Sequence record: NC_054905.1
DNA length: 64,000 bases
Direction: 5' to 3' (one strand)
DNA from: Enterobacteria phage Kha5h
Shown: positions 842 through 33,436 of the stretch, piece after piece
Position numbering within the stretch: position 1 is the stretch's first letter
Layout: each line of letters opens with the position of its first letter
Position numbers and translations under genes: made by a program
Notes under the pieces: generated by a model
Seen by the model: the letters and a program-made list of their open reading frames with translations, nothing else
Told to the model about the DNA's origin: nothing
Databases searched by the model: none

Positions 842-1016
842 GGAGTTTAATTTCCTTAGCAACTGAACTAAATGCAGCACGATCGCAAATCATGCGTTTA
901 TGTAACTTGAGTATAATATAGCAAACTTCAAAACTATTTACATGAGTAACACGAACAGCATTACCATTAATGAGATAATACTGTCCCTTTTTAATTTCTT
1001 TATCAACCATAACCAT
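834..1016 (-). CDS. hypothetical protein (60 aa)
   Basis: ORF track; ATG at 1014-1016 just downstream of an early promoter. Confidence 0.45.
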   Translation of the reverse strand: MVMVDKEIKKGQYYLINGNAVRVTHVNSFEVCYIILKLHKRMICDRAAFSSVAKEIKLHG

Positions 1017-1046
1017 ATCAATTCCTCAAAGGTAATTCATATGTTA

Positions 1047-1076
1047 ATAATACCACGGTTTGAACTTGTTGTAAAC
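1047..1076 (-). promoter_or_regulatory. T4-type early promoter (-35 GTTTAC, 18-nt spacer, TGG-TATTAT)
   Basis: minus-strand GTTTAC-N18-TGGTATTAT with upstream TTTCACAAAG element. Confidence 0.6.
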
Positions 1077-1148
1077 AACTTTGTGAAAAATATTTTAGGG
1101 AATGACAAGAAGGGAACGATAGCTTAGAATGGTAATATACAGAATGTA

Positions 1149-7781: not shown

Positions 7782-8783
7782 TTACTTAATTAACTGTAAA
7801 GCTTGTTCAAGACGATCAAGACGATTAACGGATTCTTCCCAAATCTTTTTAGCCTGCTCATATTCTTTCTGCGCTTTATTAGAAATTTCTAGAACTTCTT
7901 TATAAGCTTTTTCTAATGCAATAACTTCTGGACGAATTTCTACCGGTTCAGGTGAATCATCAAGACATTCCATTAGTTCCTCAAGGGTAGTTTCTTCTTT
8001 AGGAGTATTCACAATTTCATCACATTTTTGTTGGTAAATTTCTTTACTAGTAGGTGAATAAGCACATTTCACTTCACGAAGACTAATTACAATTTTATAT
8101 CCTTCCCATCCGCATATATTCTTAAAAGGATATGTATGAATATTTTCTACTGTTTCCATACAAAGTAATGCAGTCTCTAACTGACGAGTTATAGTGCTAG
8201 CAATTGAGAAAAATTTATTAATATTCTTTTGGTTAGCGTTTGGTGTAAAAAATCCATAATTCACAAAAATAGCTACTTTATTTTCATCAAGCTCATATTC
8301 TTTTACGATAATCATATCAGAAGCCAAAGGATGAATTTGACGATAATCGCCATAACATAATTTAGAAGCTGATTTTAGAATTTGTCCTTTGAAAAGTCTG
8401 AAATTACTAATCCAACGACGAGTAAAAATATTCTCAGGGTCTTCTTTATTATTAAGATGATAAGAATTAACATCACCGAACCAATTATATCCTACTACAT
8501 CTTTAGTTCGTTTAATTTCTTTCCCAAAATTACCAAGAATATCCCGATTAACCAAATATGAAAGAAGACGAGACTCTTTAAAGGTTTTCTTGATAACATC
8601 TTTATCTACACGGCTAGAAATTTTACGAATTTCATGAATAAATTTAGCAGAAGAAACAATACTTGCATCAACACTATTGAGCCATTGGTTGATAATAGAA
8701 AGAACGCTATTTTGGCCAAACATCGGTATAGCTTTATCATCAATAACGCTATTGAATGATTTGATATATTCGTTACGAGTCAT
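7782..8783 (-). CDS. hypothetical protein with C-terminal coiled coil (333 aa)
   Basis: start moved to ATG 8781-8783 (MTRNEY...) behind GAGGAG SD; the ORF-track N-terminus is promoter read-through. Confidence 0.55.
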   Translation of the reverse strand: MTRNEYIKSFNSVIDDKAIPMFGQNSVLSIINQWLNSVDASIVSSAKFIHEIRKISSRVDKDVIKKTFKESRLLSYLVNRDILGNFGKEIKRTKDVVGYNWFGDVNSYHLNNKEDPENIFTRRWISNFRLFKGQILKSASKLCYGDYRQIHPLASDMIIVKEYELDENKVAIFVNYGFFTPNANQKNINKFFSIASTITRQLETALLCMETVENIHTYPFKNICGWEGYKIVISLREVKCAYSPTSKEIYQQKCDEIVNTPKEETTLEELMECLDDSPEPVEIRPEVIALEKAYKEVLEISNKAQKEYEQAKKIWEESVNRLDRLEQALQLIK

Positions 8784-8811
8784 AATAATCTCCTCAGTAG
8801 AAAGTAAGAAC

Positions 8812-8841
8812 ATTATACCACATCCTTGTGGCAATGTAAAC
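8812..8841 (-). promoter_or_regulatory. T4-type early promoter (GTTTAC-N18-TGG-TATAAT)
   Basis: minus-strand match ahead of gene 7782..8783. Confidence 0.6.
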
Positions 8842-9845
8842 TAGTTCAGTGCATTTAGTGCATTGTTCAGTTTAGAACGTTGCTTCGTAAGATTTTTGAC
8901 TTTTTCTTGAGCTTTTTCCAGCATCTTTTCAGCTTCTAACACTTCATTAGTTGCTTTAACGAGTTCATCATCTACTGCCTTGATAGACTTCTCAATCGCA
9001 TCCGTGTGCCATTTTTCAACAGGTTTAAGACTCGGATTTTCAACAGGAAGAAAATTCACTTTATTGAATTTCCATGCATCATTATTACCTGAACTATACA
9101 TCCAAAATTTAGGATCGTTTGATGAGTAATTAGTTTGGGGTTCAGGTTTTTTCTCTTGTGTAACTTCGTCCTTTCTCAAAAAATCATATTTAAATGAAAC
9201 GATCATATCAAGTTCATATGTTGTCGTATCTAATTTAAATCGTTCGAAATGCTGCGAAATCTTAGACTGAACAGCAGCAACAACATCCATATACTTAAAT
9301 GCTTCTGTCAACTGTGATTTAAGGCATTCACAAATTGAAAGAGAATTTTTAGTATTAGGCTTAAAGCTAATTCGCGCAGTTCTATTATTTTCCTTTAATG
9401 GTCTTACTTCCATCTGAAGAGTATAACCATCAAATTTAAGATTCTTTAAGTTAATATCAGAGCCTTTTAATCGACTAGCAGTAGACAAAATTTGCTTTAA
9501 TTGTCTACGGAACAGAGCAATAAATCTCCATTCAATACGATAATGATTTGGATTGAAAAATCCAGATGATAAATCGACCTTACTTTGACCAACGCCTTGA
9601 ACAAATAGAGGATTTTTATAATCAATAGTTTTACAGAAATCGGTGAGCTGCTCACGAGCAGTCATTTGTGTAATATATCCAGCTTTATCAAAATGACGTA
9701 ACCATTCACTGCTATTCATATACTTAAAGTGAATATCACGATTAACTTTATCAGGGTCTAAATTATTTTGGCACAAAAATGTCATAACATCACGAGTATA
9801 GCTGGCATTACGAACCATATCTTCAATTTGAGAACGAGTTTTCAT
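8841..9845 (-). CDS. hypothetical protein with C-terminal coiled coil (334 aa)
   Basis: ORF track; ATG with AAGGA SD. Confidence 0.55.
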   Translation of the reverse strand: MKTRSQIEDMVRNASYTRDVMTFLCQNNLDPDKVNRDIHFKYMNSSEWLRHFDKAGYITQMTAREQLTDFCKTIDYKNPLFVQGVGQSKVDLSSGFFNPNHYRIEWRFIALFRRQLKQILSTASRLKGSDINLKNLKFDGYTLQMEVRPLKENNRTARISFKPNTKNSLSICECLKSQLTEAFKYMDVVAAVQSKISQHFERFKLDTTTYELDMIVSFKYDFLRKDEVTQEKKPEPQTNYSSNDPKFWMYSSGNNDAWKFNKVNFLPVENPSLKPVEKWHTDAIEKSIKAVDDELVKATNEVLEAEKMLEKAQEKVKNLTKQRSKLNNALNALN

Positions 9846-11214: not shown

Positions 11215-11742
11215 TTATGCGAGTACCGTCTTTAACCGTTCTTCAAACTTCCGAAGAGTATTTTGGCGTTCAGCTCTTTGCTTTTTGTAAGTTTCAATAC
11301 GCTCTGAAATGAGAGTGTATCGTTCATTTACTGATTCTTTCATAAAATCAGGAATTTCACGAGAAGCTTTAATCTCGTCAAATTTATCAATAACAGCTTG
11401 CTCTTCAGCAATTAAGTTATCATACATCAAAATATCTTTCTTGATGAACTCAATATCTTCTTGAGTTACACGAGATAATTTAGATGCTTTATCCTTTTTG
11501 TACTGTTCGTTAGTATCACGAGACCAGTGTAATGTACGATTTTTATTCGTATTCTTGTAAATTTCTACAATACCGATCTCGTCAATAATAACGATCCAAT
11601 TCCAACGGGATTTGTAAATTTGTCCTCCATCAACAGTGATTTCACCTCCAATTGAGATGTCATTAAAGAACTTGCTTTGTGCTTCTGATTTAAATTTACC
11701 ATCGTTGTAATTTACCAGGTTGAAAATATCTTTAGCGTTCAT
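11215..11742 (-). CDS. hypothetical protein with C-terminal coiled coil (175 aa)
   Basis: start moved to ATG 11740-11742 (MNAKDIF...) behind GGAGGA SD, downstream of an early promoter. Confidence 0.55.
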   Translation of the reverse strand: MNAKDIFNLVNYNDGKFKSEAQSKFFNDISIGGEITVDGGQIYKSRWNWIVIIDEIGIVEIYKNTNKNRTLHWSRDTNEQYKKDKASKLSRVTQEDIEFIKKDILMYDNLIAEEQAVIDKFDEIKASREIPDFMKESVNERYTLISERIETYKKQRAERQNTLRKFEERLKTVLA

Positions 11743-11770
11743 TTTGTGTTCCTCCGTAGTTGATAGTTGT

Positions 11771-11800
11771 ATAGTACCACAGAGGAACGGTCTTGTAAAC
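11771..11800 (-). promoter_or_regulatory. T4-type early promoter cassette (GTTTAC-N18-TGG-TACTAT, then ACAACTATCAACTAC)
   Basis: one of several copies of a near-identical promoter/5'UTR module. Confidence 0.6.
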
Positions 11801-11802
11801 AA

Positions 11803-12105
11803 CTAAAAGAAACTTCTTTCACAATTTTTTCCACTGAACCACGCACTCACTGCTTTCTTAGTCTCAGGAGCAGTGTTATCCATAAACCATTCAAAGGCAG
11901 CCTTTTTATGATTCTGGAGGGCTTCTCGGGCTTTAATCTGCTCACGGTCTATTAACACTAACATATGAGCCTTTCTTGTCACCATGGGCTTCTTATGATT
12001 TTTTGAATACTCCCAATCATTTGTCCATCGCATCGTTGTTGCGAACTGAAATACTGCTTCTTTAATTTTAGTTTCGTAAATTTCACGAGCCTTTGAGTAT
12101 AACAT
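11803..12105 (-). CDS. hypothetical protein (100 aa)
   Basis: start moved to ATG 12103-12105 behind GGAGG SD. Confidence 0.5.
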   Translation of the reverse strand: MLYSKAREIYETKIKEAVFQFATTMRWTNDWEYSKNHKKPMVTRKAHMLVLIDREQIKAREALQNHKKAAFEWFMDNTAPETKKAVSAWFSGKNCERSFF

Positions 12106-12206
12106 CACTACCTCCATTCACCAGTTTAATTCTAGTCATCTTTTTGATGGCAGTCCATATAATCTATTTCTGAACTGCCTTTTTGTCATAGAAGTCCTCT
12201 TATGAA

Positions 12207-13175
12207 TTATTTCAGAAGAGTAACCTCAGCAATTTCTTCCCAACCGTTTTTGTCGGTCATAATAAAGTCAGCAAGATAAAGTGCAGTACGCAGTGAAACA
12301 TTGCGTAAACGATTAACATTGACTTTCATCCATGATAATGCTTTATAAGTTTCTTCATCAGAAAGACCGCGCTTTTGCATCATGTCAGTTGAAAGAATAA
12401 CATCTTCAACCCTGACCATAATTTCTTCATTAGTGTGAACACCCAAATCTAAATAAACTGAGCGGGAAACTAATGCTTGTAAATGTGGAGCAAGTTTAGT
12501 ACCACGGTCTAATTCGCGGTCAATGTCAACGTTTGTGATAAAAACAATCGTTCCTTTAAATTCAAACTCACGCTCAATGCCTTTTTCTTCTAAGTAAGAA
12601 GATGCAGTGCTCCAGCAGACTTTACGGGTCTCTCCAGTGTCCAGAGCAGCTTTCAAAAGATTAAGAATGTCCATATCAGAGAAAACATCCACATCATCAA
12701 TCAAAAGGACAGAATTCTCTTCACGATTATTCCAGAGCTGTTCATAAAGACCGATACCAGAGATTTTACCGTTAATGCTTTTATATTCAATGTATCCAAT
12801 ATCATTTGCTTTATTTAAAGCTTTATCTAAAGAATACGTTTTACCAATGCCTGCCGCACCAGAGATAATTAATGAACGAATGTTTCCGTTAATAATACCA
12901 TTCGTCATCATTCCCATAACATTAAATCTTTTATTAATGCGGGTTTTCATATCTTCATATGATTCTTTAACTTCTTCAACTTTTACACCATCATATGAAA
13001 TGTCTGATTTGTAAACCCAAACACCGCGACGCTTACCGTCAATTTCAACAAAAACTTTACCATCTCCTTGTGCATCCACCGGAGCATTATCTGGGAACCA
13101 TTCACCTAAGAGCTCAAAAGTTCCAGAGATTTCTTTACCGAAGTAGATACCCTTATTGATAGTTACAGTTTTCAT
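12207..13175 (-). CDS. P-loop NTPase (AAA-like ATPase)
   Basis: Walker A GAAGIGKT and Walker B VLLIDDVD; ATG 13173-13175 behind GGAGAA SD, downstream of an early promoter. Confidence 0.65.
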   Translation of the reverse strand: MKTVTINKGIYFGKEISGTFELLGEWFPDNAPVDAQGDGKVFVEIDGKRRGVWVYKSDISYDGVKVEEVKESYEDMKTRINKRFNVMGMMTNGIINGNIRSLIISGAAGIGKTYSLDKALNKANDIGYIEYKSINGKISGIGLYEQLWNNREENSVLLIDDVDVFSDMDILNLLKAALDTGETRKVCWSTASSYLEEKGIEREFEFKGTIVFITNVDIDRELDRGTKLAPHLQALVSRSVYLDLGVHTNEEIMVRVEDVILSTDMMQKRGLSDEETYKALSWMKVNVNRLRNVSLRTALYLADFIMTDKNGWEEIAEVTLLK

Positions 13176-13209
13176 TTTATTCTCCAAATCCGTATCAGTT
13201 GATAGTTGT

Positions 13210-13239
13210 ATAGTACCATAAAGCTTTATGCCTGTAAAC
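13210..13239 (-). promoter_or_regulatory. T4-type early promoter cassette
   Basis: GTTTAC-N18-TGGTACTAT plus A/T-rich UP region, immediately downstream of a terminator. Confidence 0.6.
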
Positions 13240-13263
13240 CGTTTTGTGAAAAATTTTTGAAAT

Positions 13264-13290
13264 AAAAAAAAAGGGAGCCCGAAGGCTCCC
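13264..13290 (-). terminator. intrinsic terminator
   Basis: hairpin GGGAGCCTTCGGGCTCCC followed by T9. Confidence 0.75.
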
Positions 13291-13292
13291 TA

Positions 13293-14306
13293 TCATTTAT
13301 AATAACTTCGGTGGTTTTCAAGATAGACCTTCTCAAGGAAGTCATCCCAGAAACTCATGTCTACTGTTTTAGGCATACCGTTCTTAGAAGCTTCAGTAGA
13401 TGCTGCTTCTACTTGATCGACCACATCTTCCAAAAACTCTTGAACTGTTTTAAATGGATGTTTACCCAACTTCACGTCGAGAATAAATGGAGCATCTTGA
13501 AGTGGATAGACTAAGTCACCAGTTTTGTAAATTTCCAATAGTTGGAGTCCACCACGACAAGCATGACTCAAAGCTTTCCAGTCAATACCTTCATTGGCTT
13601 CGGCCTTACGAGCACGTTCACCATATTCAGCATCTAATTTGTTCAGTGACTGCTTAAGCTCAATAAGAGAAAGCGTTGTCTGATATTTACGACCCAACAC
13701 AGTGTAGAACGTTTGTGGGCCTGTTTTCTCATGATTATGGAACACCCATTCACAGAATTCGTTTTCTGGAAGACGATGCTTAATATCTTCAACTTTAGTG
13801 CGACGCTGCTTAATAGAACCATCTTCTTGGTAATCAATCCACTGCTCAGGGATTTGATTAACTACTTTCAATACATCACGTAATGCAGCCAAACGAGAAC
13901 CTTTGACACCGTATTTAGAAGCTTGCTTGCGGACATATCCTAAATATGATTTCATGTTAGTCGTATAAAAACGAGAACGGTTGTCTTGAATAAACTTCCA
14001 CACATCAGGCAAATCAGATTTAACCACTAGTTCAGGTGGAGTGTGAAGCATATCTAATGCTACGGTTTCACCATCTGCTGCTAATTTAAAGAAATATTTA
14101 AGACTGTATAGTTCATGGTCAATATCATCTTTAGTGTTTTTAGATGATGTGTTGTTAGTGTTTTTACTCATATGCTCTTTAACATTTCCGATAAGAATAT
14201 CGCGAGCAGGAGGAACAAAGATTTCTTTAAAATCTACATCAGATTCTGGAGTAGAAGTTCCATAAAGATGACTACCAAAATAGCTTTTCATTACTGTTTT
14301 CATCAT
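13293..14306 (-). CDS. nucleotidyltransferase-fold protein (Pol-beta superfamily-like), function unknown
   Basis: N-terminal GSHLYGTSTPESDVDF (GS-x10-DxD) with downstream VALDML acidic strand; followed by a strong terminator. Confidence 0.55.
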   Translation of the reverse strand: MMKTVMKSYFGSHLYGTSTPESDVDFKEIFVPPARDILIGNVKEHMSKNTNNTSSKNTKDDIDHELYSLKYFFKLAADGETVALDMLHTPPELVVKSDLPDVWKFIQDNRSRFYTTNMKSYLGYVRKQASKYGVKGSRLAALRDVLKVVNQIPEQWIDYQEDGSIKQRRTKVEDIKHRLPENEFCEWVFHNHEKTGPQTFYTVLGRKYQTTLSLIELKQSLNKLDAEYGERARKAEANEGIDWKALSHACRGGLQLLEIYKTGDLVYPLQDAPFILDVKLGKHPFKTVQEFLEDVVDQVEAASTEASKNGMPKTVDMSFWDDFLEKVYLENHRSYYK

Positions 14307-14764
14307 TCAGCCTTATATTCAATAACAGGACATACTTTAGCTTTACGCGCTTTTAAAAATTCGACGATAACCGATTTCTTGGGTTGAATAGGAGGTAAAC
14401 CTTTATACGCCCTATCAATATTTTCTACGTGTAAAGCATAATCCTTTTTCCATTTATAATCTTTATATTTTTCACGCAAATGTGCAGGAATAACAAATGA
14501 ACCGATAATAAGTAAAACAACCAAAAGCGCAAGTATAAATGCCGATGGAAGAAGAGTCCATAAACTACCGAAAATAAGCCAACGTTGTAGGCTTTCTGCA
14601 CAAATAATTGTTAGCCCTACGAGTATAGCACATCCAAAAATAGAAACGAAAAATGTAGGAATGGCAATAGACCAAAAATATGCGCATAGTGTCTTAGGTC
14701 GTTGCCATTCATCGTTAAACAATTTGAATAATTTATAATGCCAAGAGTTTTCATTAATAATCAT
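14303..14764 (-). CDS. hypothetical membrane protein (153 aa)
   Basis: three predicted hydrophobic helices; ATGA overlap with downstream gene. Confidence 0.55.
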   Translation of the reverse strand: MIINENSWHYKLFKLFNDEWQRPKTLCAYFWSIAIPTFFVSIFGCAILVGLTIICAESLQRWLIFGSLWTLLPSAFILALLVVLLIIGSFVIPAHLREKYKDYKWKKDYALHVENIDRAYKGLPPIQPKKSVIVEFLKARKAKVCPVIEYKAE

Positions 14765-14766
14765 AA

Positions 14767-15288
14767 TTATCCTTTCATTGAAGGTGTAACAGTTGTTAAA
14801 TACTTAATCATAGCCTCAGCTTCTGATTTTGATAGTGAAATTTCTTCACCGTTTTGGCGAATAGAAACAAAATCTGGATGACGATCACCACCAGCTTTTA
14901 AAACACACATATAAGTATCAGCTTCGCCTTCAATATTTGAAATGATTGAAGCAGTTCCACACGAATGTGGTTTTTGATAAATCAATACAGCTTTTCTTCC
15001 ACCATTTGACTGTTCATAGGCTTTTAATACATCAAACAAATCAGTTCTTTTATCAATAGCTAAAATGTTATTTTCATCTTCAATGTTAAATCCTTCGGAT
15101 ACTTCATAAAGCGTTACCCATAAATCGCCAATATCAATAACAGCATTTACTTTTCCACGGCTTTCAAGAGTATGACAAATTTTCTTGATTTCGTCATAAC
15201 TCATTTTAATAATATCATCTCCTTGACTAAGAAAGATGTCATTTTTAAATTCAACACGAATTAAACCACTTCCACTTGAAATAAACAT
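14767..15288 (-). CDS. hypothetical protein, paralogue of 15295..15837
   Basis: ORF track; shared C-terminal motif (SLSKSEAEAMIKYLTTVTPSM vs TFTKDEAIALKTYLDSVIPTM). Confidence 0.55.
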   Translation of the reverse strand: MFISSGSGLIRVEFKNDIFLSQGDDIIKMSYDEIKKICHTLESRGKVNAVIDIGDLWVTLYEVSEGFNIEDENNILAIDKRTDLFDVLKAYEQSNGGRKAVLIYQKPHSCGTASIISNIEGEADTYMCVLKAGGDRHPDFVSIRQNGEEISLSKSEAEAMIKYLTTVTPSMKG

Positions 15289-15294
15289 ATTTCC

Positions 15295-15837
15295 TCACTT
15301 TGAAATCATAGTTGGAATGACAGAATCAAGATAAGTCTTTAGTGCAATAGCTTCGTCTTTGGTAAATGTGACAATATGTGCTCGAGAATCATCATTTTGG
15401 CGAACAAGTACGACATCGCCATCTTCATAAGAAGTCTTGACATCCAAAGTCGTAGTATAGTTTGCAGCTACTGGATTAATAATGTTAGCACCGCGATCTT
15501 TAGCCCATTGAAGTTTAGCCTTTTCGGGTGTTTCGGCTGTTTCAGATTCTAAGAATTCTTTCACCTTGGCAACGAATGTTGCCCAATTGTTGATAGAAAG
15601 ACACATAAATTCAGTTTCAATATTACCGCCGTAAAGGCCACGATAAAAACGAACTTGGAGGTCACCTGTAATATTAGTTACACCGGTAACTCCTGAGGGA
15701 GCATAAGATAAAATCGCAGCCAGTTCCATAGGAAGAATAGTAATACTATCGTCTTCCTGCGTCAGAACGTATACATTACCGCGTTTTTCGATAACTAGGT
15801 CACCGAACAAATCAGTTGTTTCAATTACAGCTTTCAT
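15295..15837 (-). CDS. hypothetical protein, paralogue of 14767..15288
   Basis: start moved to ATG 15835-15837 (ORF-track start is TTG). Confidence 0.5.
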   Translation of the reverse strand: MKAVIETTDLFGDLVIEKRGNVYVLTQEDDSITILPMELAAILSYAPSGVTGVTNITGDLQVRFYRGLYGGNIETEFMCLSINNWATFVAKVKEFLESETAETPEKAKLQWAKDRGANIINPVAANYTTTLDVKTSYEDGDVVLVRQNDDSRAHIVTFTKDEAIALKTYLDSVIPTMISK

Positions 15838-15838
15838 A

Positions 15839-16024
15839 TTATTTACCAATTAAAGTTTCAATATAAGAATCAAGATTTACTTTAGCTTCTTCCATAAGAG
15901 TTTTGTATTTAATCTTGTTAGCATGTCCGGAGAAAGCTGATTCATCAATAATTGTTGATGTATGAACAGCTTTACTATACGTCTCAATTAATTCTCTTAA
16001 TTTAAAAGCCTGCTCACTTGTCAT
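15839..16024 (-). CDS. small helical protein (61 aa), member of a small-protein family
   Basis: ORF track; ATG right after an early promoter; N-terminal motif shared with 16189..16362. Confidence 0.45.
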   Translation of the reverse strand: MTSEQAFKLRELIETYSKAVHTSTIIDESAFSGHANKIKYKTLMEEAKVNLDSYIETLIGK

Positions 16025-16156
16025 TACATACTCCTCTGAATCATATCAATAATGTTGTTTACCAAATTATAAGTAAACATTGGGTAATTATATTGAATCA
16101 TCACATACACAACAAACAAAACTTTCATTCTCTTCTCCTTGGCAGTTGACAAGATT

Positions 16157-16186
16157 ACTATACCATAACCTTGCCAACTTGTAAAC
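16157..16186 (-). promoter_or_regulatory. T4-type early promoter (GTTTAC-N18-TGG-TATAGT)
   Basis: minus-strand match ahead of the 15839..13293 operon. Confidence 0.55.
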
Positions 16187-16188
16187 CA

Positions 16189-16362
16189 TTAAATGACGTT
16201 TTCGATAAAATTCTGAAGCTTTGTATGAGCATCAACCATGATTTTCAATTCTTCTTTAGCGAAAGCCGTACCTCTTTCCCGAGCAGAATACTCATAGTCA
16301 GAAACTGCATTAGCATATTCTTCAATTAGTTTCATTAAAAACATCTGCTTTTCAGTTTTCAT
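16189..16362 (-). CDS. small helical protein (57 aa), member of a small-protein family
   Basis: hand-translated (MKTEKQMFLMKLIEEYANAV...); not in ORF track (<60 aa). Confidence 0.4.
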   Translation of the reverse strand: MKTEKQMFLMKLIEEYANAVSDYEYSARERGTAFAKEELKIMVDAHTKLQNFIENVI

Positions 16363-16546
16363 TATTCCACCTAATCATTTCAAGATATTGAACTAATTTA
16401 GCTTTAGATTTGTCCAAATCCTTTTTAGCTGCTTCTATACCGTCGTATGAATATCCTTCACAATGCTCAACTGCTAATTGGTATGAATCTATTTCAATAT
16501 CATGCGCTAATTTAATGATTTTTTCAAACTGTTCGCGTGTTAGCAT
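16352..16546 (-). CDS. small helical protein (64 aa), member of a small-protein family
   Basis: ORF track. Confidence 0.45.
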   Translation of the reverse strand: MLTREQFEKIIKLAHDIEIDSYQLAVEHCEGYSYDGIEAAKKDLDKSKAKLVQYLEMIRWNNEN

Positions 16547-16548
16547 AA

Positions 16549-16788
16549 TTAAACTCTCGTATTATGATCGATAATTTCATCAAGAAACATATCTAACGCT
16601 TCTAAAGCATTATCAACTTTAGCTTCAAGTTCATCAATGCCTTTATTTGCAATGCCTGATGAAAACCAAGCAAAGTCACTAAGTTCCTCATCTGCTTTAC
16701 GAATTAAAGCTACCAATTCCTTAATTTTATCCGCTTGTTCGATACTAATCATTATTCCACCACATATGAAAGAGAGAATATTGCACAT
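16549..16788 (-). CDS. small helical protein (start uncertain), member of a small-protein family
   Basis: ORF track; likely true start at the internal [13 protein letters not shown]. Confidence 0.4.
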
Positions 16789-16940
16789 GCCATGTGAGTT
16801 GCAACTTCATCACACATATTATAACGTTTCTTAAGAAATTCTACAAGTTCTTCACTAGTAACTTCATCCATGTCGACGAAAAAATCACCATTAATGATGA
16901 CGTAGATATTTCCTTCTTGATTGAGTGCTTCAATTTTCAT
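16752..16940 (-). CDS. hypothetical small protein (62 aa)
   Basis: ORF-track N-terminus is promoter read-through from TTG; start moved to the first in-frame Met (MKIEALN...). Confidence 0.4.
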
Positions 16941-16968
16941 GATGTTCTCCTCTTTATCCGATAGTTGT

Positions 16969-16999
16969 ATAGTATCACAGCTCAAACGGAAAGTAAACC
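16969..16999 (-). promoter_or_regulatory. T4-type early promoter cassette
   Basis: GTTTAC-N18-TGATACTAT-ACAACTATC; a terminator lies just upstream. Confidence 0.55.
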
Positions 17000-17008
17000 G
17001 GTAAAATG

Positions 17009-17032
17009 AAAAAAGTCTCCCGAAGGAGACTA
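17009..17032 (-). terminator. intrinsic terminator
   Basis: hairpin AGTCTCCTTCGGGAGACT followed by TTTTT. Confidence 0.7.
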
Positions 17033-17035
17033 ATG

Positions 17036-17422
17036 TTATTCGAGGGAAAGAAGATACTTACTCTGGTAAAACATTCCAGTAATATCATCTATCGTGCTTT
17101 GAATGGCTGGAGGCATTTCTTTATAAATGCTGTTAGATTGGTCTAGTATGCGATCAATCATTTTAATTGTGTCGGTAGGAAGTTTACTGGCATCTGGAAT
17201 TGAAGGCGTGTATTTTCTACCAGAATACCCCAAATATTGCTCACCAAATTTATCAATCAAATCTGGCAACTCGGAGAAAATAAAATCGTATGCTTTGTGT
17301 CTAGCATAACTTTTAGTTTCAAAATGTGCAGAATGAAAATAAGCTTGTGCAGCCATTAATAAACCTAAGTATTCATCTGCCTTTGAAGGTTTTCCACTTT
17401 GTGAAAAGTCGCTGAATTTCAT
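17036..17422 (-). CDS. hypothetical helical protein (128 aa)
   Basis: ORF track; followed by terminator. Confidence 0.5.
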
Positions 17423-17712
17423 TCAGTCTCCAATTTAATGTTCATAATTCTAGCGTATGATTGTGCCATCTCCGCGCCTCGTTCTATACATTCAAAATCA
17501 GAAGAGCACGGGTCATTTTTATAGGTCGTTCTCATAAAACTATAGAATTGTTCAGACGATTCTACGCTTTTATTTTCAAAAAGTGTATAAACGTGCCTAA
17601 TACCAGATTCCATAAATTTATCAAAATGAGGATCGACATTCGCTTCAATCGATGGAGATAAAACAAATGACAATCCTAGCATGGCAAAAAGTGCCGTTGC
17701 TTTTAAGGCCAT
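17419..17712 (-). CDS. hypothetical secreted/periplasmic protein
   Basis: N-terminal signal-peptide-like MALKATALFAMLGLSFVLSPSIEA. Confidence 0.5.
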   Translation of the reverse strand: MALKATALFAMLGLSFVLSPSIEANVDPHFDKFMESGIRHVYTLFENKSVESSEQFYSFMRTTYKNDPCSSDFECIERGAEMAQSYARIMNIKLETE

Positions 17713-17724
17713 AAAGGCCTCCTA

Positions 17725-17937
17725 TCATTTTTGTCCTGTATTTACTTTATGCCGATGCACGGCCTTAACTTTATCAAGGTATTTTTCAAAATTTCGCAAT
17801 CTAGTATAGTCTGCCGGAGATTGGTTGAGTGATACTTCTCGACGCAAAGCTGAAATGATATTTCCAACTTCCCTACGAATTTCATCTAATTGAAGCACAG
17901 TAAGATTGCGAAGTTGCTTTTCAGTTAATTGTAGCAT
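17725..17937 (-). CDS. hypothetical protein (70 aa)
   Basis: ORF track. Confidence 0.45.
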
Positions 17938-17979
17938 ATATACCCCTTTAGTTAGATAAACCTATTTATAACTTTTGCA

Positions 17980-18561
17980 CTAACCAAGCTTTTTAGTTAA
18001 TTCATTCCAATGTTTTCTGCACAAAGAAACATAAATTTCATCACCAATACAGATTTGATTACCTTCTTTAACTGGTGTTCCATCTTCCATTAATCGAGCT
18101 GTCATAATCGCTTTTTTGCCGCAATGACAAACTGCCTTTAGTTCAATAAGTTTATCTGCAATCGCTAAAAGTTCTTTAGAACCTTCAAACAATTTTCCAG
18201 CGAAATCAGTCCTTAATCCATAAGCCATAACAGGAACATTATATGTATCAACAATTCGGCTTAATTGGTGCACCTGTTCAGTTTTTAAAAACTGAGCTTC
18301 ATCTACAAATACGCAATGAATATCTTTTTGTGCTTCAGCCCATTTATAGAACTCGAAAATATCCATATCATCTGTAATAATATTCGCTTCCTGTTTAATT
18401 CCAATGCGAGAAACAACTTCACAGACAGAATCGCGAGTATCAATAGCAGGCTTAAGAACTAATACACTCATTCCACGTTCTTTATAATTATGTGCAGCAG
18501 TCAAAAGAGAAGCAGATTTTCCAGCATTCATTGCTGCATAAGTAAAAATTAAACTCGCCAT
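17980..18561 (-). CDS. tk: thymidine kinase
   Basis: 193 aa; P-loop AAMNAGKS; C-terminal Cys pairs typical of TK. Confidence 0.9.
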   Translation of the reverse strand: MASLIFTYAAMNAGKSASLLTAAHNYKERGMSVLVLKPAIDTRDSVCEVVSRIGIKQEANIITDDMDIFEFYKWAEAQKDIHCVFVDEAQFLKTEQVHQLSRIVDTYNVPVMAYGLRTDFAGKLFEGSKELLAIADKLIELKAVCHCGKKAIMTARLMEDGTPVKEGNQICIGDEIYVSLCRKHWNELTKKLG

Positions 18562-20675: not shown

Positions 20676-21137
20676 TCATTGAGTTTTAATTACTGCTTTA
20701 GAAGCCTTTCCTGGTAAACGACGACTGTTGATAATTGCCATCCTGCATTGAAGTGACGGGTTTTTGAACTTCTCATTAGGCTTACAAACTGTAAATCCAA
20801 GCCAAAGATTTCCATCTGTGATTTCTAAACGTCCAGGACGATATTCAATCCCATCAATAAAATCCTCGTCAATGTCAGGACGCGGAGGCATACTCAGGAA
20901 TTCATTAACTTCTAAAACATGGTCTTTTATTTTATGGAATAATTCAAAAACGTATGTCTCATCAATCTCCCGTTGAATTGCGCGATCAAGAAGATGCTGA
21001 GAATATTTTAGATGAAACGATGAGACTCCTGCTGCTTTTGATGCCTCACGAATCTCATTGTTAATTTGACGAAACTCCGACTCAAAGTGACGACGAAGCT
21101 TATTTCGACGGATAAAAACTTCTGTGTTGATAGTCAT
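20676..21137 (-). CDS. regB: site-specific endoribonuclease RegB
   Basis: 153 aa; sequence MTINTEVFIRRNKLRRHFESEF... matches T4 RegB as recalled. Confidence 0.9.
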   Translation of the reverse strand: MTINTEVFIRRNKLRRHFESEFRQINNEIREASKAAGVSSFHLKYSQHLLDRAIQREIDETYVFELFHKIKDHVLEVNEFLSMPPRPDIDEDFIDGIEYRPGRLEITDGNLWLGFTVCKPNEKFKNPSLQCRMAIINSRRLPGKASKAVIKTQ

Positions 21138-21164
21138 GTTATTCTCCTCTTAACTGATAGAAAA

Positions 21165-21194
21165 ATTATACCACAGTCAAGAGGAAAAGTAAAC
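21165..21194 (-). promoter_or_regulatory. T4-type early promoter upstream of regB
   Basis: GTTTAC-N18-TGGTATAAT. Confidence 0.6.
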
Positions 21195-21196
21195 AA

Positions 21197-21475
21197 TTAT
21201 TCTTTAAATCTAATCAATTTATTCATAGACTTTGAAACTTCTGCACGAACCTCATGTAGGTTTTTAAGCTGTTCAAGACGCTGCTCATAGTAAGCAATTT
21301 CATCTTCTTCGAGACAGTCCTGCGAATCTTCTTTAAGATAACGTGCATAGTCCTGGAAAGCTTTACGGACTACTTCCTGGAAGTCATCAAGACTTTGAAT
21401 TTTCTTAGGAGCAACAGATACACGACGAGGGGCAGTATAATACTCATAACCAAACCCTGCGCTTAATTGAGCCAT
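21197..21475 (-). CDS. hypothetical protein (92 aa)
   Basis: start moved to ATG 21473-21475 ([12 protein letters not shown]...). Confidence 0.45.
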
Positions 21476-23825: not shown

Positions 23826-24242
23826 TTAAATGTAAATATTTTTGCCGTAATACTTGTACCAGTGTGGCTTCATTAAAATTTTTTCATCGAGTCGTTGTTG
23901 ACTCAATTTAATAGCTGATTTGCATGGATTATAATCATTTTTCCATTCTGCTGGAATATCGCTGATGTCAGGAACTTCAGTATCTTTTATACTAAACCCA
24001 CGTTTTAAGCATTCCGTTATAATGTCTGATTGACGCTTTCGCAAAAATTCTAACTTATCGTAAAAGAACGTAACATGACCAGAGCCTAAAATAAACTCGG
24101 AAGATATTTTAAAATCTTTAACCCGCTTACCATTTGCCACATGTTTACGAACTATACCAAAAACACGCGGCAATTCACGATACTCAGCCATAAGATGTTG
24201 GTCGGTCAGTTCAGAAACAAGTGTTAAATTGATACGAGTCAT
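23826..24242 (-). CDS. denV: pyrimidine-dimer DNA glycosylase (endonuclease V)
   Basis: 138 aa from ATG 24240-24242 behind GGAGGA SD; [12 protein letters not shown]... matches T4 EndoV as recalled. Confidence 0.9.
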
Positions 24243-24269
24243 AATTTCCTCCAAGTAGTTGATGAATGT

Positions 24270-24299
24270 ATAGTATCAAAGTCCTTGGAGGAAGTAAAC
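24270..24299 (-). promoter_or_regulatory. T4-type early promoter upstream of denV
   Basis: GTTTAC-N18-TGATACTAT. Confidence 0.55.
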
Positions 24300-24300
24300 A

Positions 24301-25541
<1,241 letters not shown>

Positions 25542-26796: not shown

Positions 26797-27349
26797 ATTT
26801 TTCTAATAATAAATCGCTTTCAAAATTAGGATTTTCCACGAATTTATCAAAAAGATCATCAACGATAGTTAAGATATTCTTTTTATTAAGAATACGCTTA
26901 TTTTCATATTTTGTTTCAGAGTCAACTATAAGAGTAAAGAAATATTTCTTTCCCTGAAATTTTACCGTAGTATCAATATAGAACAAATTTGACTTTTGTA
27001 AATTACGTTTAAACCATGCGTCACTTAAACTGTAAACGCCAAGATAATCATAATCGTCATTTAAATAACAAACTGTCCATTCAGGAGAAATGAAATCAGT
27101 AAATTCAACATCAAAATCACACGTCAATGAATGAATTGATTCAATACTTTTAATGAGTATTCCAGGACGTATTAAAGACTTTTTACCTTTATAAAATCCA
27201 GAAAGACTTTCATCAGTTTCGTATGAAGACCCCCAATAGTAATTACGTCCTTCTGCCATACGTTTAAGAGCATTTAGTAATTGATCTGGAACATCAACCT
27301 GTCTTTGGAACTCTTCAAACATTGAATTGAAATCACTTTGCATTTTCAT
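26744..27349 (-). CDS. hypothetical protein (201 aa)
   Basis: ORF track; C-terminus ...KFVKECREY shares the junction motif of the downstream membrane genes. Confidence 0.5.
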   Translation of the reverse strand: MKMQSDFNSMFEEFQRQVDVPDQLLNALKRMAEGRNYYWGSSYETDESLSGFYKGKKSLIRPGILIKSIESIHSLTCDFDVEFTDFISPEWTVCYLNDDYDYLGVYSLSDAWFKRNLQKSNLFYIDTTVKFQGKKYFFTLIVDSETKYENKRILNKKNILTIVDDLFDKFVENPNFESDLLLEKFVKECREYVKAITIPSK

Positions 27350-28027: not shown

Positions 28028-28204
28028 TTATACTCCGGATAGTTTGTAAACTATTTCAACATCGCCTTTTGCTGCTTTATAACCTTCAGCCCAAGATATA
28101 ACCGAGTTTTTATCTGAAGATTCAAATTCTGGCATTGGGCTTTCGCCAATGTTCACACAATATGTTTCTTCATTTTCGTCGAACCAAATAATTAAAGTAG
28201 TCAT
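28028..28204 (-). CDS. hypothetical small protein (58 aa)
   Basis: hand-translated (MTTLIIWFDENEETYCV...), GGAGAAATAA SD; not in ORF track. Confidence 0.4.
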   Translation of the reverse strand: MTTLIIWFDENEETYCVNIGESPMPEFESSDKNSVISWAEGYKAAKGDVEIVYKLSGV

Positions 28205-28272
28205 TTATTTCTCCGTTTCTATATTTGTTTTGATAAGTCTATAATAACACCGTCCTTGGTGTTTGTACACAA

Positions 28273-28536
28273 TTATTTCATATTATTGAAATATTCTTCT
28301 GCGATTTCGTCGTTATCATGGTAAACTTTAGAAGACAGTTTAACATAACCTTCAGCAGTGAACATGTTAATCACAACCTTTACAGTATACCACTGACCGT
28401 CTTCATTACCCATTACTGCATAAGTTTCAAACATCGGATGATCAGGACCGATAACTTTAATATCATTCACCGTACGACCAAAATCTTCTGAAACGCATTT
28501 CATAAAGAAGTTGAACAGTTCGCCGTAATTATCCAT
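28273..28536 (-). CDS. hypothetical protein (87 aa)
   Basis: start moved to ATG 28534-28536 (MDNYGELF...) behind GGAGAA SD; ORF-track N-terminus is promoter read-through. Confidence 0.5.
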   Translation of the reverse strand: MDNYGELFNFFMKCVSEDFGRTVNDIKVIGPDHPMFETYAVMGNEDGQWYTVKVVINMFTAEGYVKLSSKVYHDNDEIAEEYFNNMK

Positions 28537-28579
28537 TTCGTTCTCCAAGTTGTTTTCTGTATCAGTAGTTGATAGTTGT

Positions 28580-28609
28580 ATAGTACCATGGAAGGACAAG
28601 GATGTAAAC
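28580..28609 (-). promoter_or_regulatory. T4-type early promoter cassette
   Basis: GTTTAC-N18-TGGTACTAT-ACAACTATCAACTAC with A/T-rich UP element. Confidence 0.6.
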
Positions 28610-28743
28610 CGTTTTGTGAAAAAATTTTTTAAAAAGTTTTAGGGAATTCTAGGGCAGGGAGGGGCAATTAAAAGATAGGATAATATATTATAAAGGGTAG
28701 AAACTAAATGATGCCTAGAGAGGCCTGGAAAGGCCTAGATACC

Positions 28744-28771
28744 AAAAAGCCCCAACCTTTCGGCTAGGGCT
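28744..28771 (-). terminator. intrinsic terminator
   Basis: hairpin AGCCCTAGCCGAAAGGTTGGGGCT followed by TTTTT. Confidence 0.65.
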
Positions 28772-28778
28772 AAGAATG

Positions 28779-29252
28779 TTATTTGATTTGTTTAGCAGAC
28801 CAAATGCGGTCTTTAATAATTTTTTGAATGTCTTCAACATACTCAAGAGAGTGAGCATGTGGGTTATCTTTGAAACTATAAGCACGAGCCAGTTTTTGGC
28901 CTTCAGTTTTGATTACTAAAAGCTCTTTAAGGATAGCTTCATATCTGGAGATAATTCCTTTAACAATATTTTTCTCTTGTGCGACTTTAGGATCTGCTTT
29001 AGGAGCAGGTTTACCCGAAGCCTTTGCAAAAGCAGCGCCAGTAGCAACTAAACTTTTCCAAGCCATACTAACTGCATTCCCTGTAAATCCTTCGGCTTTC
29101 ATATCACGAGCAAATTGGAATCGTGATTCATCGGAAGCATCTTTATAGGAATATTTACCCGCGGCAATGGCTGCTTTTGCGACAGCTTGAATTTCGGTGC
29201 TAGATGCTTCATTTAACACCGCTTCATTTAAAAATTGAGCATATGATTTCAT
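28779..29252 (-). CDS. candidate packaged internal protein with capsid-targeting-like N-terminus
   Basis: N-terminus MKSYAQFLNE-AVLNE; flanked by terminators on both sides. Confidence 0.5.
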   Translation of the reverse strand: MKSYAQFLNEAVLNEASSTEIQAVAKAAIAAGKYSYKDASDESRFQFARDMKAEGFTGNAVSMAWKSLVATGAAFAKASGKPAPKADPKVAQEKNIVKGIISRYEAILKELLVIKTEGQKLARAYSFKDNPHAHSLEYVEDIQKIIKDRIWSAKQIK

Positions 29253-29298
29253 CTTATTTCCTGTTTTAATTCGTGGTTTTAATATACTTATTTATACT

Positions 29299-29326
29299 AA
29301 AAAGCCCCAACCTTTCGGTCGGGGCT
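29299..29326 (-). terminator. intrinsic terminator closing the tRNA / small-RNA transcription unit
   Basis: hairpin AGCCCCGACCGAAAGGTTGGGGCT followed by TTTTT. Confidence 0.65.
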
Positions 29327-29329
29327 AAG

Positions 29330-30006: not shown

Positions 30007-30083
<77 letters not shown>

Positions 30084-30087
30084 TATT

Positions 30088-30162
30088 TGGCGGACATGCA
30101 TGGATTCGAACCATGGACCAATTGATTAACAGTCAACTGCTCTACCACTGAGCTACACATCC
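30088..30162 (-). tRNA. tRNA-Asn (anticodon GUU)
   Basis: hand-folded: D-arm GCTC-AGTGGTA-GAGC, anticodon loop CTGTTAA, T-loop TTCGAAT, encoded CCA. Confidence 0.75.
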
Positions 30163-30166
30163 AAAT

Positions 30167-30253: not shown

Positions 30254-30265
30254 TAATTCATAATT

Positions 30266-30340: not shown

Positions 30341-30341
30341 T

Positions 30342-32117: not shown

Positions 32118-32303
32118 CTATTCACCTTTAGAAATTTTATCCATAACGATAGCAATTAAACCAATTAAAAATGCTACTACAAGTGAAAACACATTTTCTG
32201 CTGTAGTTAATAATCCACATATAAATCCAACAAACATTGAAAAACTAAAAGCAGAAGCAGAAATTGCAATAGCAACATTTCGAATTAATTCACAACGTTT
32301 CAT
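32118..32303 (-). CDS. small membrane protein (61 aa)
   Basis: hydrophobic; directly downstream of an early promoter. Confidence 0.4.
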   Translation of the reverse strand: MKRCELIRNVAIAISASAFSFSMFVGFICGLLTTAENVFSLVVAFLIGLIAIVMDKISKGE

Positions 32304-32331
32304 TTTATTCTCCTCGGTAGTTGATAGGGTA

Positions 32332-32361
32332 ATAGTATCACAACTAAAACCCTATGTAAAC
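32332..32361 (-). promoter_or_regulatory. T4-type early promoter cassette
   Basis: GTTTAC-N18-TGATACTAT. Confidence 0.55.
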
Positions 32362-32379
32362 AACTTTGTGAAATATTTA

Positions 32380-32667
32380 TTACAAAAGATTTTTAGCAAT
32401 AATCTTGAGATGTGCCGCAGAAATGTGTTTAGCTTTAAACAACGCAGTTTCTTCAGCAGGAGAGATAACGATTGTAGCACCATCCTTTTTAGCAGACCAC
32501 CCATCACCTAGGTAAACAGTACCTTTGATTTCTTCGCCATCAACCAAACTAATCATTGGTTTACCTTCTCGTCCTTTATTTGCTTTAATAACTTCAGAAG
32601 TAAGAGTAGCTTCAGTAATAGTAGAAACCGGGGTAGTTGTAGAAGTAAATTCTTTGAAAGTTTTCAT
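32380..32667 (-). CDS. internal-protein-I-like packaged protein with capsid-targeting-like N-terminus
   Basis: 95 aa; N-terminus MKTFKEF...TITE-ATLTSE; position just upstream of 57B matches the T4 ipI locus; own early promoter. Confidence 0.55.
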   Translation of the reverse strand: MKTFKEFTSTTTPVSTITEATLTSEVIKANKGREGKPMISLVDGEEIKGTVYLGDGWSAKKDGATIVISPAEETALFKAKHISAAHLKIIAKNLL

Positions 32668-32697
32668 TTTATTTTCCTAATTAATTTTGATGAGATA

Positions 32698-32727
32698 ATA
32701 GTATCACTACCTCATCAACGTGTAAAC
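32698..32727 (-). promoter_or_regulatory. T4-type early promoter upstream of the ipI-like gene
   Basis: GTTTAC-N18-TGATACTAT. Confidence 0.55.
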
Positions 32728-32739
32728 AACTTTGTGAAA

Positions 32740-33436
<697 letters not shown>

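Follow-up and report, generated by a model that had tools for sequence, protein, structure and literature searches.

Probable early-promoter cassettes of the T4-like phage Kha5h and their relation to the boundaries of gene modules

The early promoters of T4, designated Pe, were reportedly described by Liebig and Ruger in 1989, by Wilkens and Ruger, and by Miller and colleagues in 2003. Hinton (2010, PMC2988021) treats them as "uber UP/-35/TGn/-10" promoters with additional consensus regions, and the promoter of regB has been called a typical early promoter (Uzan and Miller, PMC3014915). Early promoters also form part of a composite element, the promoter-early-stem-loop or PeSL, in which an AT-rich region, an early promoter, a stem-loop, a Shine-Dalgarno (SD) sequence and an ATG are combined, as described for RB49/phi1 (Arbiol 2010, PMC2839356) and for PST/T4 and nt-1/KVP40 (Comeau, Arbiol and Krisch 2014, PMC4122927). 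The T-even consensus drawn from PST/T4 is TTTACW-N17-TAYWAT, with an AT-rich region upstream and SD and ATG at the 3' end (PMC4122927). Mini-circles produced by PeSL recombination have been demonstrated experimentally in RB49/phi1 (PMC2839356), in a paper that draws analogies to morons and integron gene cassettes and cites Repoila et al. (1994) for AT-rich stem-loops at T-even IP loci. In the T4 late genes e, soc, I-TevI/II/III, segB, 39, 25 and 26, a hairpin covering the ribosome-binding site forms only in transcripts started upstream, with the promoter lying inside it, and late promoters and late genes are what these cases have in common (PMC2988022).

Here we compare with these systems a 64,000-nt stretch of Enterobacteria phage Kha5h (NC_054905.1), which we call the window. 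A megablast search with window positions 12000-18000 returned Enterobacteria phage GiZh at 99.1% identity over the full length and hundreds of Tequatrovirus genomes at 95-99%; the window is Tequatrovirus DNA. According to the GiZh and T4 annotations, position 1 to about 33 kb corresponds to the T4 early region 55.x-nrdH-nrdD-49-nrdC.x-mobD-rI-tk-vs-regB-denV-e-tRNA-ipI-57B, which is transcribed from the minus strand; after it come the late baseplate genes, encoded on the plus strand. Positions 13190-13292, the focal interval, separate nrdC.11 from nrdC.10. Window positions 1-37 kb were aligned to eight Tequatrovirus relatives (T4, ime09, Sf25, DalCa, UTI-E4, Pu-Krd-SF7, slur04 and UFV-AREG1), which together with the window make up the nine-genome set used below. 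Rfam models found 10 tRNAs and nothing else in 1-34 kb, and a generic sigma-70 scan was uninformative, with 39-64 matches and about the same number in shuffles.

Anatomy and identity of the cassettes

A sequence-only reading of the window had proposed that a near-identical promoter module recurs at about 11771, 13210, 16969, 28580, 32332 and 32698. All six occurrences are real, and these coordinates mark the last base of the -10 hexamers. Further copies, named here by the G of GTTTAC, lie at 1076, 8841, 16186, 21194 and 24299, and one that is weaker, with GTGTAC, lies at 28270. The core GTTTAC-N15-TGNTANNAT has 10 exact matches where 0.02 are expected; all of them lie on the minus strand between 1047 and 32727, and the late region has none. 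Copies 16186 (TATAGT) and 28270 (GTGTAC), which diverge slightly, bring the total to 12, all on the minus strand. The 24-mer TGGTACTATACAACTATCAACTAC, which covers the -10 box and leader, has 3 matches with up to 3 mismatches where none is expected. When a position-weight matrix was scanned across the window for extra copies, only the GTGTAC copy at 28270 was recovered, and the plus strand and the late region were empty. The order of elements is UP element, GTTTAC, 15 nt, TGn, TAYWAT, A(+1)TC, leader, GGAG and ATG, and each cassette stands directly 5' of an SD and ATG on the early-gene strand. The features are listed below with z-scores and, for the strong hairpins, dG, both from RNA folding.

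1014..1103, minus strand: early-promoter cassette (copy 1076) 5' of a 55.6-like gene; own terminator at 1171-1157, no spanning hairpin (z -0.08)
8781..8868, minus strand: early-promoter cassette of nrdC.4 (copy 8841), adjoining the nrdC.5 stop codon; small spacer hairpin CCACAAGGAUGUGG (dG -14.2 kcal/mol, z -2.05)
11740..11827, minus strand: early-promoter cassette of nrdC.8 (copy 11800); hairpin from spacer GUUCCUCUG to SD CGGAGGAAC (dG -19.4 kcal/mol, z -4.31)
13173..13266, minus strand: focal early-promoter cassette of nrdC.10 (copy 13239), found by pattern and alignment, with a T4 ortholog; UP element 13240-13265, GTTTAC 13239-13234, TGG 13218-13216, TACTAT 13215-13210, inferred +1 A 13203, 28-nt leader, SD GGAG 13185-13182, ATG 13175-13173
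13272..13291, minus strand: intrinsic terminator after nrdC.11, AGGGAGCC-UUCG-GGCUCCCU, followed by a T9 run at 13263-13271
16126..16213, minus strand: early-promoter cassette of mobD.2 (copy 16186); 15-bp hairpin around the -10 box (dG -19.0 kcal/mol, z -4.25)
16938..17013, minus strand: early-promoter cassette of mobD.5 (copy 16998; z -0.25)
17014..17031, minus strand: intrinsic terminator after rI.-1, AGUCUCC-UUCG-GGAGACU followed by T5; annotated as a terminator in DalCa
21135..21221, minus strand: early-promoter cassette of regB (copy 21194); spacer-to-SD hairpin (dG -22.4 kcal/mol, z -5.82)
24240..24326, minus strand: early-promoter cassette of denV (copy 24299); hairpin UUCCUCCAAG / CUUGGAGGAA, its 3' arm being the SD (dG -17.8 kcal/mol, z -5.20)
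28202..28297, minus strand: weaker cassette of an e.7-like gene (copy 28270); GTGTAC as -35, then TGT TATTAT (z -1.13)
28534..28636, minus strand: early-promoter cassette of e.8 (copy 28609; z 0.04)
28748..28771, minus strand: intrinsic terminator preceding the e.8 cassette; forms a pair of 89%-identical direct repeats with the one at 29303-29326
32301..32388, minus strand: early-promoter cassette of trna.4 (copy 32361); hairpin AUAGGGU / ACCCUAU around the -10 box (dG -14.2 kcal/mol, z -2.12)
32665..32754, minus strand: early-promoter cassette of an ipI-like internal-protein gene (copy 32727); 14-bp hairpin around the -10 box (dG -15.5 kcal/mol, z -4.22)

Read along the minus strand, the focal interval runs from the nrdC.11 stop codon through the hairpin AGGGAGCC-TTCG-GGCTCCCT, T9 and ATTTCAAAAATTTTTCACAAAACG to GTTTAC, and then through 15 nt, TGG TACTAT and ACAACT ATCAACTGATACGGATTT GGAG AATAAA to the ATG of nrdC.10. 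The terminators that had been proposed beside the cassettes at 13190-13292 and 16950-17035 are indeed there, each a UUCG-loop hairpin followed by a T-run. The first, at 13291-13272, has 8 pairs (6 of them GC) and T9, lies 33 nt upstream of the focal promoter, is annotated as a terminator in GiZh and is kept in all nine genomes; the second, at 17031-17014, has 7 pairs and T5 and lies 16 nt upstream of the mobD.5 promoter.

The 12 copies align without gaps. GT.TAC at -35, TG (at -15/-14 in 12/12 copies) and TA...T at -10 are invariant, and a near-invariant A,T follows 7-8 nt past the -10 box, the canonical position of a start site. The "18-nt spacer" of the sequence-only reading is correct as a count from GTTTAC to TACTAT and becomes the canonical 17 bp, measured to the TAnnnT hexamer, if the -35 hexamer is read as TTTACA. 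The upstream TTTCACAAA occurs in only five of the 12 copies (1076, 13239, 28609, 32361 and 32727, at about -48 to -40, inside the UP-element region) and the full ACAACTATCAACTAC in two (11800 and 28609); copy 13239 deviates from the latter in its last two bases, and the remaining copies match it partially. The 12-copy consensus is A/T-rich between -40 and -60, as expected of an UP element, which at the focal site is AAAAATTTTTCACAAAAC at about -55 to -38 and which is weaker where an upstream ORF overlaps (8841, 24299). The T-even PeSL consensus with its SD and start codon is matched throughout, the deviants being 28270 (TGTACA) and 16186 (TATAGT).

In the homologous 36 kb of T4 the same pattern has 15 sites where 0.32 are expected. 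For every copy in the window, T4 and/or the seven further Tequatroviruses compared have an ortholog at the same position that keeps the locus-specific spacer, and the cores differ from those of the T4 positional orthologs by 0-3 substitutions. With the strict pattern, the denV (24299) and e.7 (28270) cassettes had no positional counterpart in the T4 stretch compared, and T4 cassettes before ipIII and e.6/e.7 (the T4 26499 and 29968 types) are missing from the window. The GenBank record of T4 names an early promoter Pe133295, and the cassette found there by pattern has its G at 133331, 36 nt upstream. The start site thereby falls on the conserved A, which validates our choice of +1; the same 36-nt rule applied to the focal copy gives a start at A13203 and a leader of 28 nt.

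Because their orthologs in T4 are early promoters, the cassettes are best taken as T4 early promoters, from which they show no essential difference: the elements (UP, GTTTAC, TGn, -10 and a consensus around +1), the orientation and the genes are the same. Their UP/-35/TGn/-10 anatomy, early-gene orientation, orthologs and fit to the consensus of PMC4122927 also bear out the name that the sequence-only reading had given them, promoter-early-stem-loop, and since this anatomy matches the published T-even PeSL the element is of an already known kind. Our main reading, to which we give a probability of roughly 0.85, is that each cassette combines an immediate-early promoter of a T4-like phage with the leader belonging to it, and that the cassettes coincide in part with sites of module exchange. 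Promoter activity in Kha5h itself is inferred from T4 orthology and consensus. If the reading is correct, host sigma-70 RNA polymerase would bind the A/T-rich UP element, the -35 GTTTACA, the extended -10 TGn and the -10 TAYWAT and would initiate at the conserved A 7 nt past the -10 box, giving a transcript with a 25-45-nt leader that ends in a GGAG-type SD and ATG. With so many elements, such promoters could give the phage an advantage over those of the host during the first minute after infection.

Terminators and hairpins

Each cassette was folded as RNA from the -35 to the ATG. Strong hairpins at the -10 box are predicted in 7/12 copies, with z-scores from -2 to -5.8. Six of these pair the spacer between -35 and -10, as 5' arm, with a 3' arm just past the -10 box or deeper in the leader; the seventh, that of copy 8841, is confined to the spacer and extended -10. 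Copies 11800, 21194 and 24299 use the SD sequence itself as 3' arm, and no more than about half of the hairpins cover the SD. Spacers bind their cognate leaders better than non-cognate ones (permutation p=5e-5). Copy 28270 has a weak hairpin only. The copies with z near 0 (1076, 13239, 16998 and 28609) are exactly those with a separate intrinsic terminator about 15-140 nt upstream, and the hairpin copies adjoin the stop codon of the upstream gene. The stem-loop expected of a PeSL thus takes the form of an upstream terminator in four copies and of a spanning hairpin with z <= -2 in seven. PMC4122927 places the T-even stem-loops just upstream of the promoter, whereas in about two thirds of our copies the stem-loop spans the -10 box, as it most often does in RB49/phi1 (PMC2839356).

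This rule, terminator or hairpin, is kept in all nine genomes and in extra cassette families. Among T4 regions that are not homologous to the window, a hairpin is present in 9/11 cassettes that lack a terminator vs 1/4 that have one. The combined counts are 1/8 with a terminator vs 19/24 without, and the corresponding Fisher p=0.0016 is indicative, since the cassette families were defined by eye. Exceptions occur in T4, where a 29968-type family has neither hairpin nor terminator and cassette 15288 has both.

Orthologs differ by substitutions that preserve the pairing. At one position of the 16186 stem T4 has A-U, the window G.U and Pu-Krd-SF7 G-C, and in the 11800 stem a double change among orthologs lengthens the helix. 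A pattern scan of IMG/VR for orthologs of the 16186 hairpin returned only four near-identical loci, and the covariation therefore rests on nine genomes. Folds of the sense strand are more stable than those of the antisense strand (-12.3 vs -9.3 kcal/mol), and there are 149 G.U pairs vs 3 A.C mismatches, both comparisons being made over sequences that are not independent. Covariation and G.U asymmetry together favour a structure in sense-strand RNA. The 5' arm of the hairpin lies upstream of the cassette's own start site, so the hairpin is possible only in read-through RNA.

The most economical reading of these predicted structures is insulation of the downstream gene from upstream transcription, which could be achieved in two ways. 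Four copies, the focal one among them, would be shielded by the intrinsic terminator that precedes them. At the hairpin copies, where the promoter adjoins the previous stop codon, read-through RNA would fold a spacer arm against a leader/SD arm, and transcripts from the cassette's own promoter, lacking the hairpin, would stay open. Such a hairpin would mask the SD, shield GGAG from RegB or stabilise the 3' end of the upstream message, and RNA structure is known to protect against RegB (PMC3014915). In its general form, that nearly every T-even early promoter is insulated by either a terminator or a spacer-leader/SD hairpin, the two being mutually exclusive, and that the downstream gene is translated only from own-promoter transcripts, we consider the proposal tentative and rather doubtful.

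The nrdC.8, regB and denV cassettes share the promoter-inside-hairpin geometry of the T4 late genes (PMC2988022), where the structure likewise covers the ribosome-binding site only in transcripts started upstream. They differ in that the internal promoter here is early and the function predicted, and about half of the hairpins in our set end before the SD. In the literature searched, which left aside older print sources, we found no statement of a complementarity between terminators and hairpins at T-even early promoters; for that reason it is reported as something noticed in passing, with no claim to novelty.

Cassettes and gene-module boundaries

The sequence-only reading had taken the cassettes for likely boundaries of exchangeable gene modules. 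At the focal site, three alleles occur among the window and its eight relatives. Six genomes, the window included, carry an "empty" allele. In DalCa and UTI-E4 two small ORFs, on about 460 bp, lie between two cassettes: the resident terminator and promoter stand upstream of them and a second cassette (GTTTACAGCAGGGTAGTAGTGTGATATTATTACCCTATCAAAAC...) downstream, and the sequence ceases to match the window just past the conserved ATCAA at +1 and matches it again from the SD onwards. UFV-AREG1 carries a 610-bp unit, consisting of its own promoter, a modB-like gene whose product is 30% identical to T4 ModB and its own terminator, inserted between the T-run of the resident terminator and the UP element, and the PeSL at the 3' end of this insert is 94% identical over 88 nt to the frd.3 PeSL of T4. 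The UFV-AREG1 insert is an autonomous promoter-gene-terminator unit between resident genes, like the morons and integron gene cassettes to which PMC2839356 compares such modules. Unlike those, the units here come without integrase or attC and are co-directional with their neighbours, and the exchange proposed for them would be general homologous recombination at regulatory repeats.

Two origins for these alleles were considered and rejected. Both cassette types that flank the DalCa insert are shared with the frd.3/frd.2 module of T4, but the ORFs of the insert have no protein or DNA homology to that module outside the cassettes, which excludes it as the source. Nor is the empty allele a simple crossover product of the DalCa allele, since the leaders differ between ATCAA and TTGGAG.

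Breakpoints also lie inside or at the edge of cassettes 16998, 24299, 28270 and 32361. At the denV cassette, just downstream of a variable internal-protein-like gene, they fall at 24278/24300-24584; at the e.7-like cassette a breakpoint at 28273 is found in four relatives; and at the trna.4 cassette they fall at 32344/32378. The interval from trna.4 to 57B holds no internal-protein gene in slur04, one in the window and T4, two in DalCa and UTI-E4 and four in UFV-AREG1, each behind its own cassette, and at the ipI-like locus homology with the relatives restarts at 32633-32646, within conserved N-terminal codons. At the focal site and the IP locus, small ORFs that were inserted or replaced thus have cassettes at their flanks, as with PeSLs. 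Pu-Krd-SF7 and UFV-AREG1 contain a chimeric cassette in which an AGGGT-type spacer is joined at the -10 box to an ipI-type leader, a structure that would point to a crossover inside the -10 box. The two 89%-identical terminators (28739-28774 and 29294-29329) flank a gene at 28779-29252, and at this locus T4 has one terminator and lacks the gene, the two alignments overlapping by 35 bp. In Sf25 a deletion at cassette 16998 removes the terminator, UP element and -35 without a cassette partner, and this event is illegitimate, not cassette-to-cassette.

The terminator-bearing subfamily, of which the focal cassette is a member, is a roughly 100-nt repeat dispersed over nrdC.10 and e.8 in the window and frd.3, motA, ndd.6/denB and imm.1 in T4, at 80-94% identity. 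The e.8 cassette is a close paralog of the focal one from the UP element through the leader; the frd.3 copy has a spacer identical to that of nrdC.10 and its own terminator; and the leader through the SD is common to nrdC.10, e.8, imm.1, ndd.6 and motA.

Whether cassettes mark such boundaries more often than other sites do is a separate question. Cassettes make up 3.3% of the sequence and contain eight of the 69 unique breakpoint edges (binomial p=0.002), an enrichment over random positions that is mostly trivial, because indels naturally end at gene boundaries. With gene junctions as the control it is lost as evidence for hot spots: 6/12 junctions with a cassette are variable vs 22/61 others (Fisher p=0.28), and the number of distinct alleles per junction is 1.58 vs 0.97 (Mann-Whitney p=0.12). 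Many of the breaks are insertions of homing endonucleases or introns, and six cassettes (1076, 8841, 11800, 16186, 21194 and, in the strict sense, 32727) show no variation across the eight relatives. The expected agreement between module boundaries and synteny breaks in relatives is present against random positions and not significant at the level of junctions. That cassettes bound some modules is demonstrable: six of them, the focal one included, lie at indel or replacement breakpoints with cassette-flanked inserts. A hot-spot status beyond that of gene junctions in general is not borne out in the eight-relative sample, in which, unlike in the PeSL model, cassette junctions are not significantly more plastic than others.

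These results give some weight to the view that the cassettes are only promoters, similar to one another through convergent or purifying selection for maximal sigma-70 strength and with no causal part in shuffling, so that gene boundaries are simply where indels stop, and an insertion has to bring a promoter of its own to survive. Besides the non-significant junction-level tests and the invariance of half the cassettes, 36% of cassette-less junctions vary too, and the spacers are locus-specific and stable among orthologs, which argues against frequent homogenising recombination. But selection for promoter strength would not readily account for similarity that extends past the promoter elements, through leader and SD in five cassettes and over the whole spacer in nrdC.10 and frd.3, nor for modules bounded by cassettes on both sides, the chimeric cassette or the deletion between repeated terminators, and PeSL recombination is an experimental fact in RB49/phi1 (PMC2839356). 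We hold this view to be quite possible, at somewhat below even odds. Under our main reading, recombination at the cassettes may have caused some of the indels, and the cassette-flanked inserts, the chimeric cassette and the deletion between terminators are sequence footprints consistent with recombination between copies. Promoter, leader and terminator would make a gene autonomous, and the copies would offer short stretches of homology to the recombination system of T4, which could explain why some cassettes, the focal one among them, coincide with gain, loss or swap of small gene modules.

Other identities and implications

Dispersed repeats of about 100 nt with a stem-loop, and with gene cassettes between copies, could also suggest that these are not regulatory DNA but sites served by a mobile-element or site-specific recombination system of their own, comparable to integron attC sites or MITEs. 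We think this very unlikely: every copy is orthologously fixed in the nine genomes and placed exactly before an SD and ATG, the conserved columns are precisely the elements contacted by RNA polymerase, no integrase or recombinase is associated, and the stems vary from copy to copy. Still less credible is an identity as promoters of the middle class, dependent on MotA, or of the late (gp55) class. T4 middle promoters, too, commonly have a good -10 box with TGn (PMC2988021), but GTTTAC stands at canonical -35 spacing in place of a MotA box (TGCTT centred at -30), no TGCTT occurs in the -35 and spacer columns of the 12-copy alignment, the late motif TATAAATA is absent from all 12 copies, and the ortholog of the regB cassette, copy 21194 here, is documented as an early promoter (PMC3014915). 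The proposal that the repeat encodes an N-terminal peptide (..GTIQLSTT..) shared by several proteins can be set aside almost completely, for although it is in frame and free of stops with the downstream gene in four cassettes, only rare TTG starts are on offer there (none upstream of the motif at 13239), a strong SD and ATG follow every copy, the annotations of T4, GiZh and others start at that ATG, and the other eight copies are out of frame or interrupted by stops.

The same four cassettes confirm that the TIQLST peptide creates false N-terminal extensions in naive ORF calls. At nrdC.8 the naive ORF 11215..11802, with a TTG start, has 195 aa where the true product has 175, and at mobD.5 the ORF 16752..16985 is lengthened by the peptide. 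For annotation, the cassettes fix the true start codons, remove such extensions and define, from sequence, the early transcription units of Kha5h.

For evolution, the focal site offers a clean three-allele example of an insertion hot spot bounded by promoter and terminator, one allele of which carries a ModB-like ADP-ribosyltransferase paralog, and the junction-level control cautions against taking every cassette for a recombination hot spot. If the complementarity of terminators and hairpins is functional, the expression of T4 early genes would depend on where the transcript starts. The insulation reading, if true, would likewise limit the exposure of GGAG to RegB to own-promoter transcripts, would extend control by a promoter inside a hairpin from late genes to the immediate-early class, and would explain the autonomous, transplantable behaviour of promoter-plus-gene units.

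Inserts at the focal site and a twin of its cassette

The intergenic region between nrdC.11 and nrdC.10 (window 13190-13292), in which the early promoter cassette 13239 (cassettes are numbered by the G of GTTTAC) lies downstream of the terminator 13272-13291, accommodates extra genes in Tequatrovirus relatives, and its cassette has a close counterpart at another position in T4.

UFV-AREG1 14905-15390: ModB paralog, inserted at a point corresponding to window 13263-13267
DalCa 15142-15551 and UTI-E4 14912-15321: two-ORF insert between two early-promoter cassettes at the focal site
T4 146837-146940 (26838-26941 of T4 locus L015): twin of the focal cassette in the gene 32-frd.3 interval

The product of the UFV-AREG1 gene (161 aa) has 30% identity over about 100 aa to the T4 ADP-ribosyltransferase ModB, and the gene forms a self-contained promoter-gene-terminator unit within the focal intergenic region. 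For the ORFs shared by DalCa and UTI-E4 (49 and 87 aa), a homolog was found neither in T4 nor in the window; the cassette downstream of them is similar to the one adjoining frd.2 in T4, with its G at 146143. The twin between gene 32 and frd.3 has a -35/-10 spacer identical to that of the focal cassette, AAGCATAAAGCTTTA, as well as its own terminator, GGGGACC-CTAGA-GGTCCCC, and related copies of about 100 nt stand upstream of motA, ndd.6/denB, imm.1 and e.8.

Deletion and repeats at other loci

Sf25, about 19507: 145-bp deletion, equivalent to window 16980-17126
28739-28774 and 29294-29329, minus strand: pair of intrinsic terminators, 89% identical and in direct repeat, on either side of gene 28779-29252

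In Sf25 the deletion took away the terminator and, with it, the 3' end of rI.-1 as well as the UP element and -35 of the mobD.5 promoter, leaving a cassette of -10 box and leader only, a "half PeSL" (promoter-early stem-loop). Gene 28779-29252 (157 aa) is missing from T4, where the locus has one terminator and the alignments overlap by 35 bp; other relatives carry alternative segments of 660-667 bp at this site. The arrangement is probably the footprint of an insertion or deletion through recombination between repeated stem-loops.

The window's tRNA cluster (30007-30837, minus strand) comprises 10 genes (Arg, Asn, Tyr, Met, Thr, Ser, Pro, Gly, Leu and Gln) versus 8 in T4; in the window, no homing-endonuclease gene segB separates tRNA-Arg from the others. 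On the plus strand, at least six tandem repeats of 24 nt (8 codons, VxGxxxxx-like) at 38178-38345 would fit the beta-helix at the C-terminus of the tail lysozyme gp5, and imperfect GAA/GAT/GAC-rich repeats at 60900-61250 and 62510-62585 would encode acidic Asp/Glu-rich stretches of a late-region gene.

Hairpins around the -10 box

An SD-like CAAGGA is repeated within the -35/-10 spacer of window cassettes 8841, 16186, 24299 and 28270 and T4 cassettes 2458 and 167086, where it often makes up the loop of a short hairpin, CCAC-AAGGA-nGTGG.

An RNA hairpin encloses the -10 box in minus-strand window cassettes 8841, 11800, 16186, 21194, 24299, 32361 and 32727, and also in T4 loci L014 and L015. Its arms, at early promoters lacking a terminator, are formed by the spacer pairing with the leader or SD, and it is present in 19 of the 24 cassette families without an upstream terminator versus 1 of the 8 with one (p=0.0016). 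Both covariation and the asymmetry of G.U pairs favour a structure in sense-strand RNA, one that can arise only in read-through transcripts.
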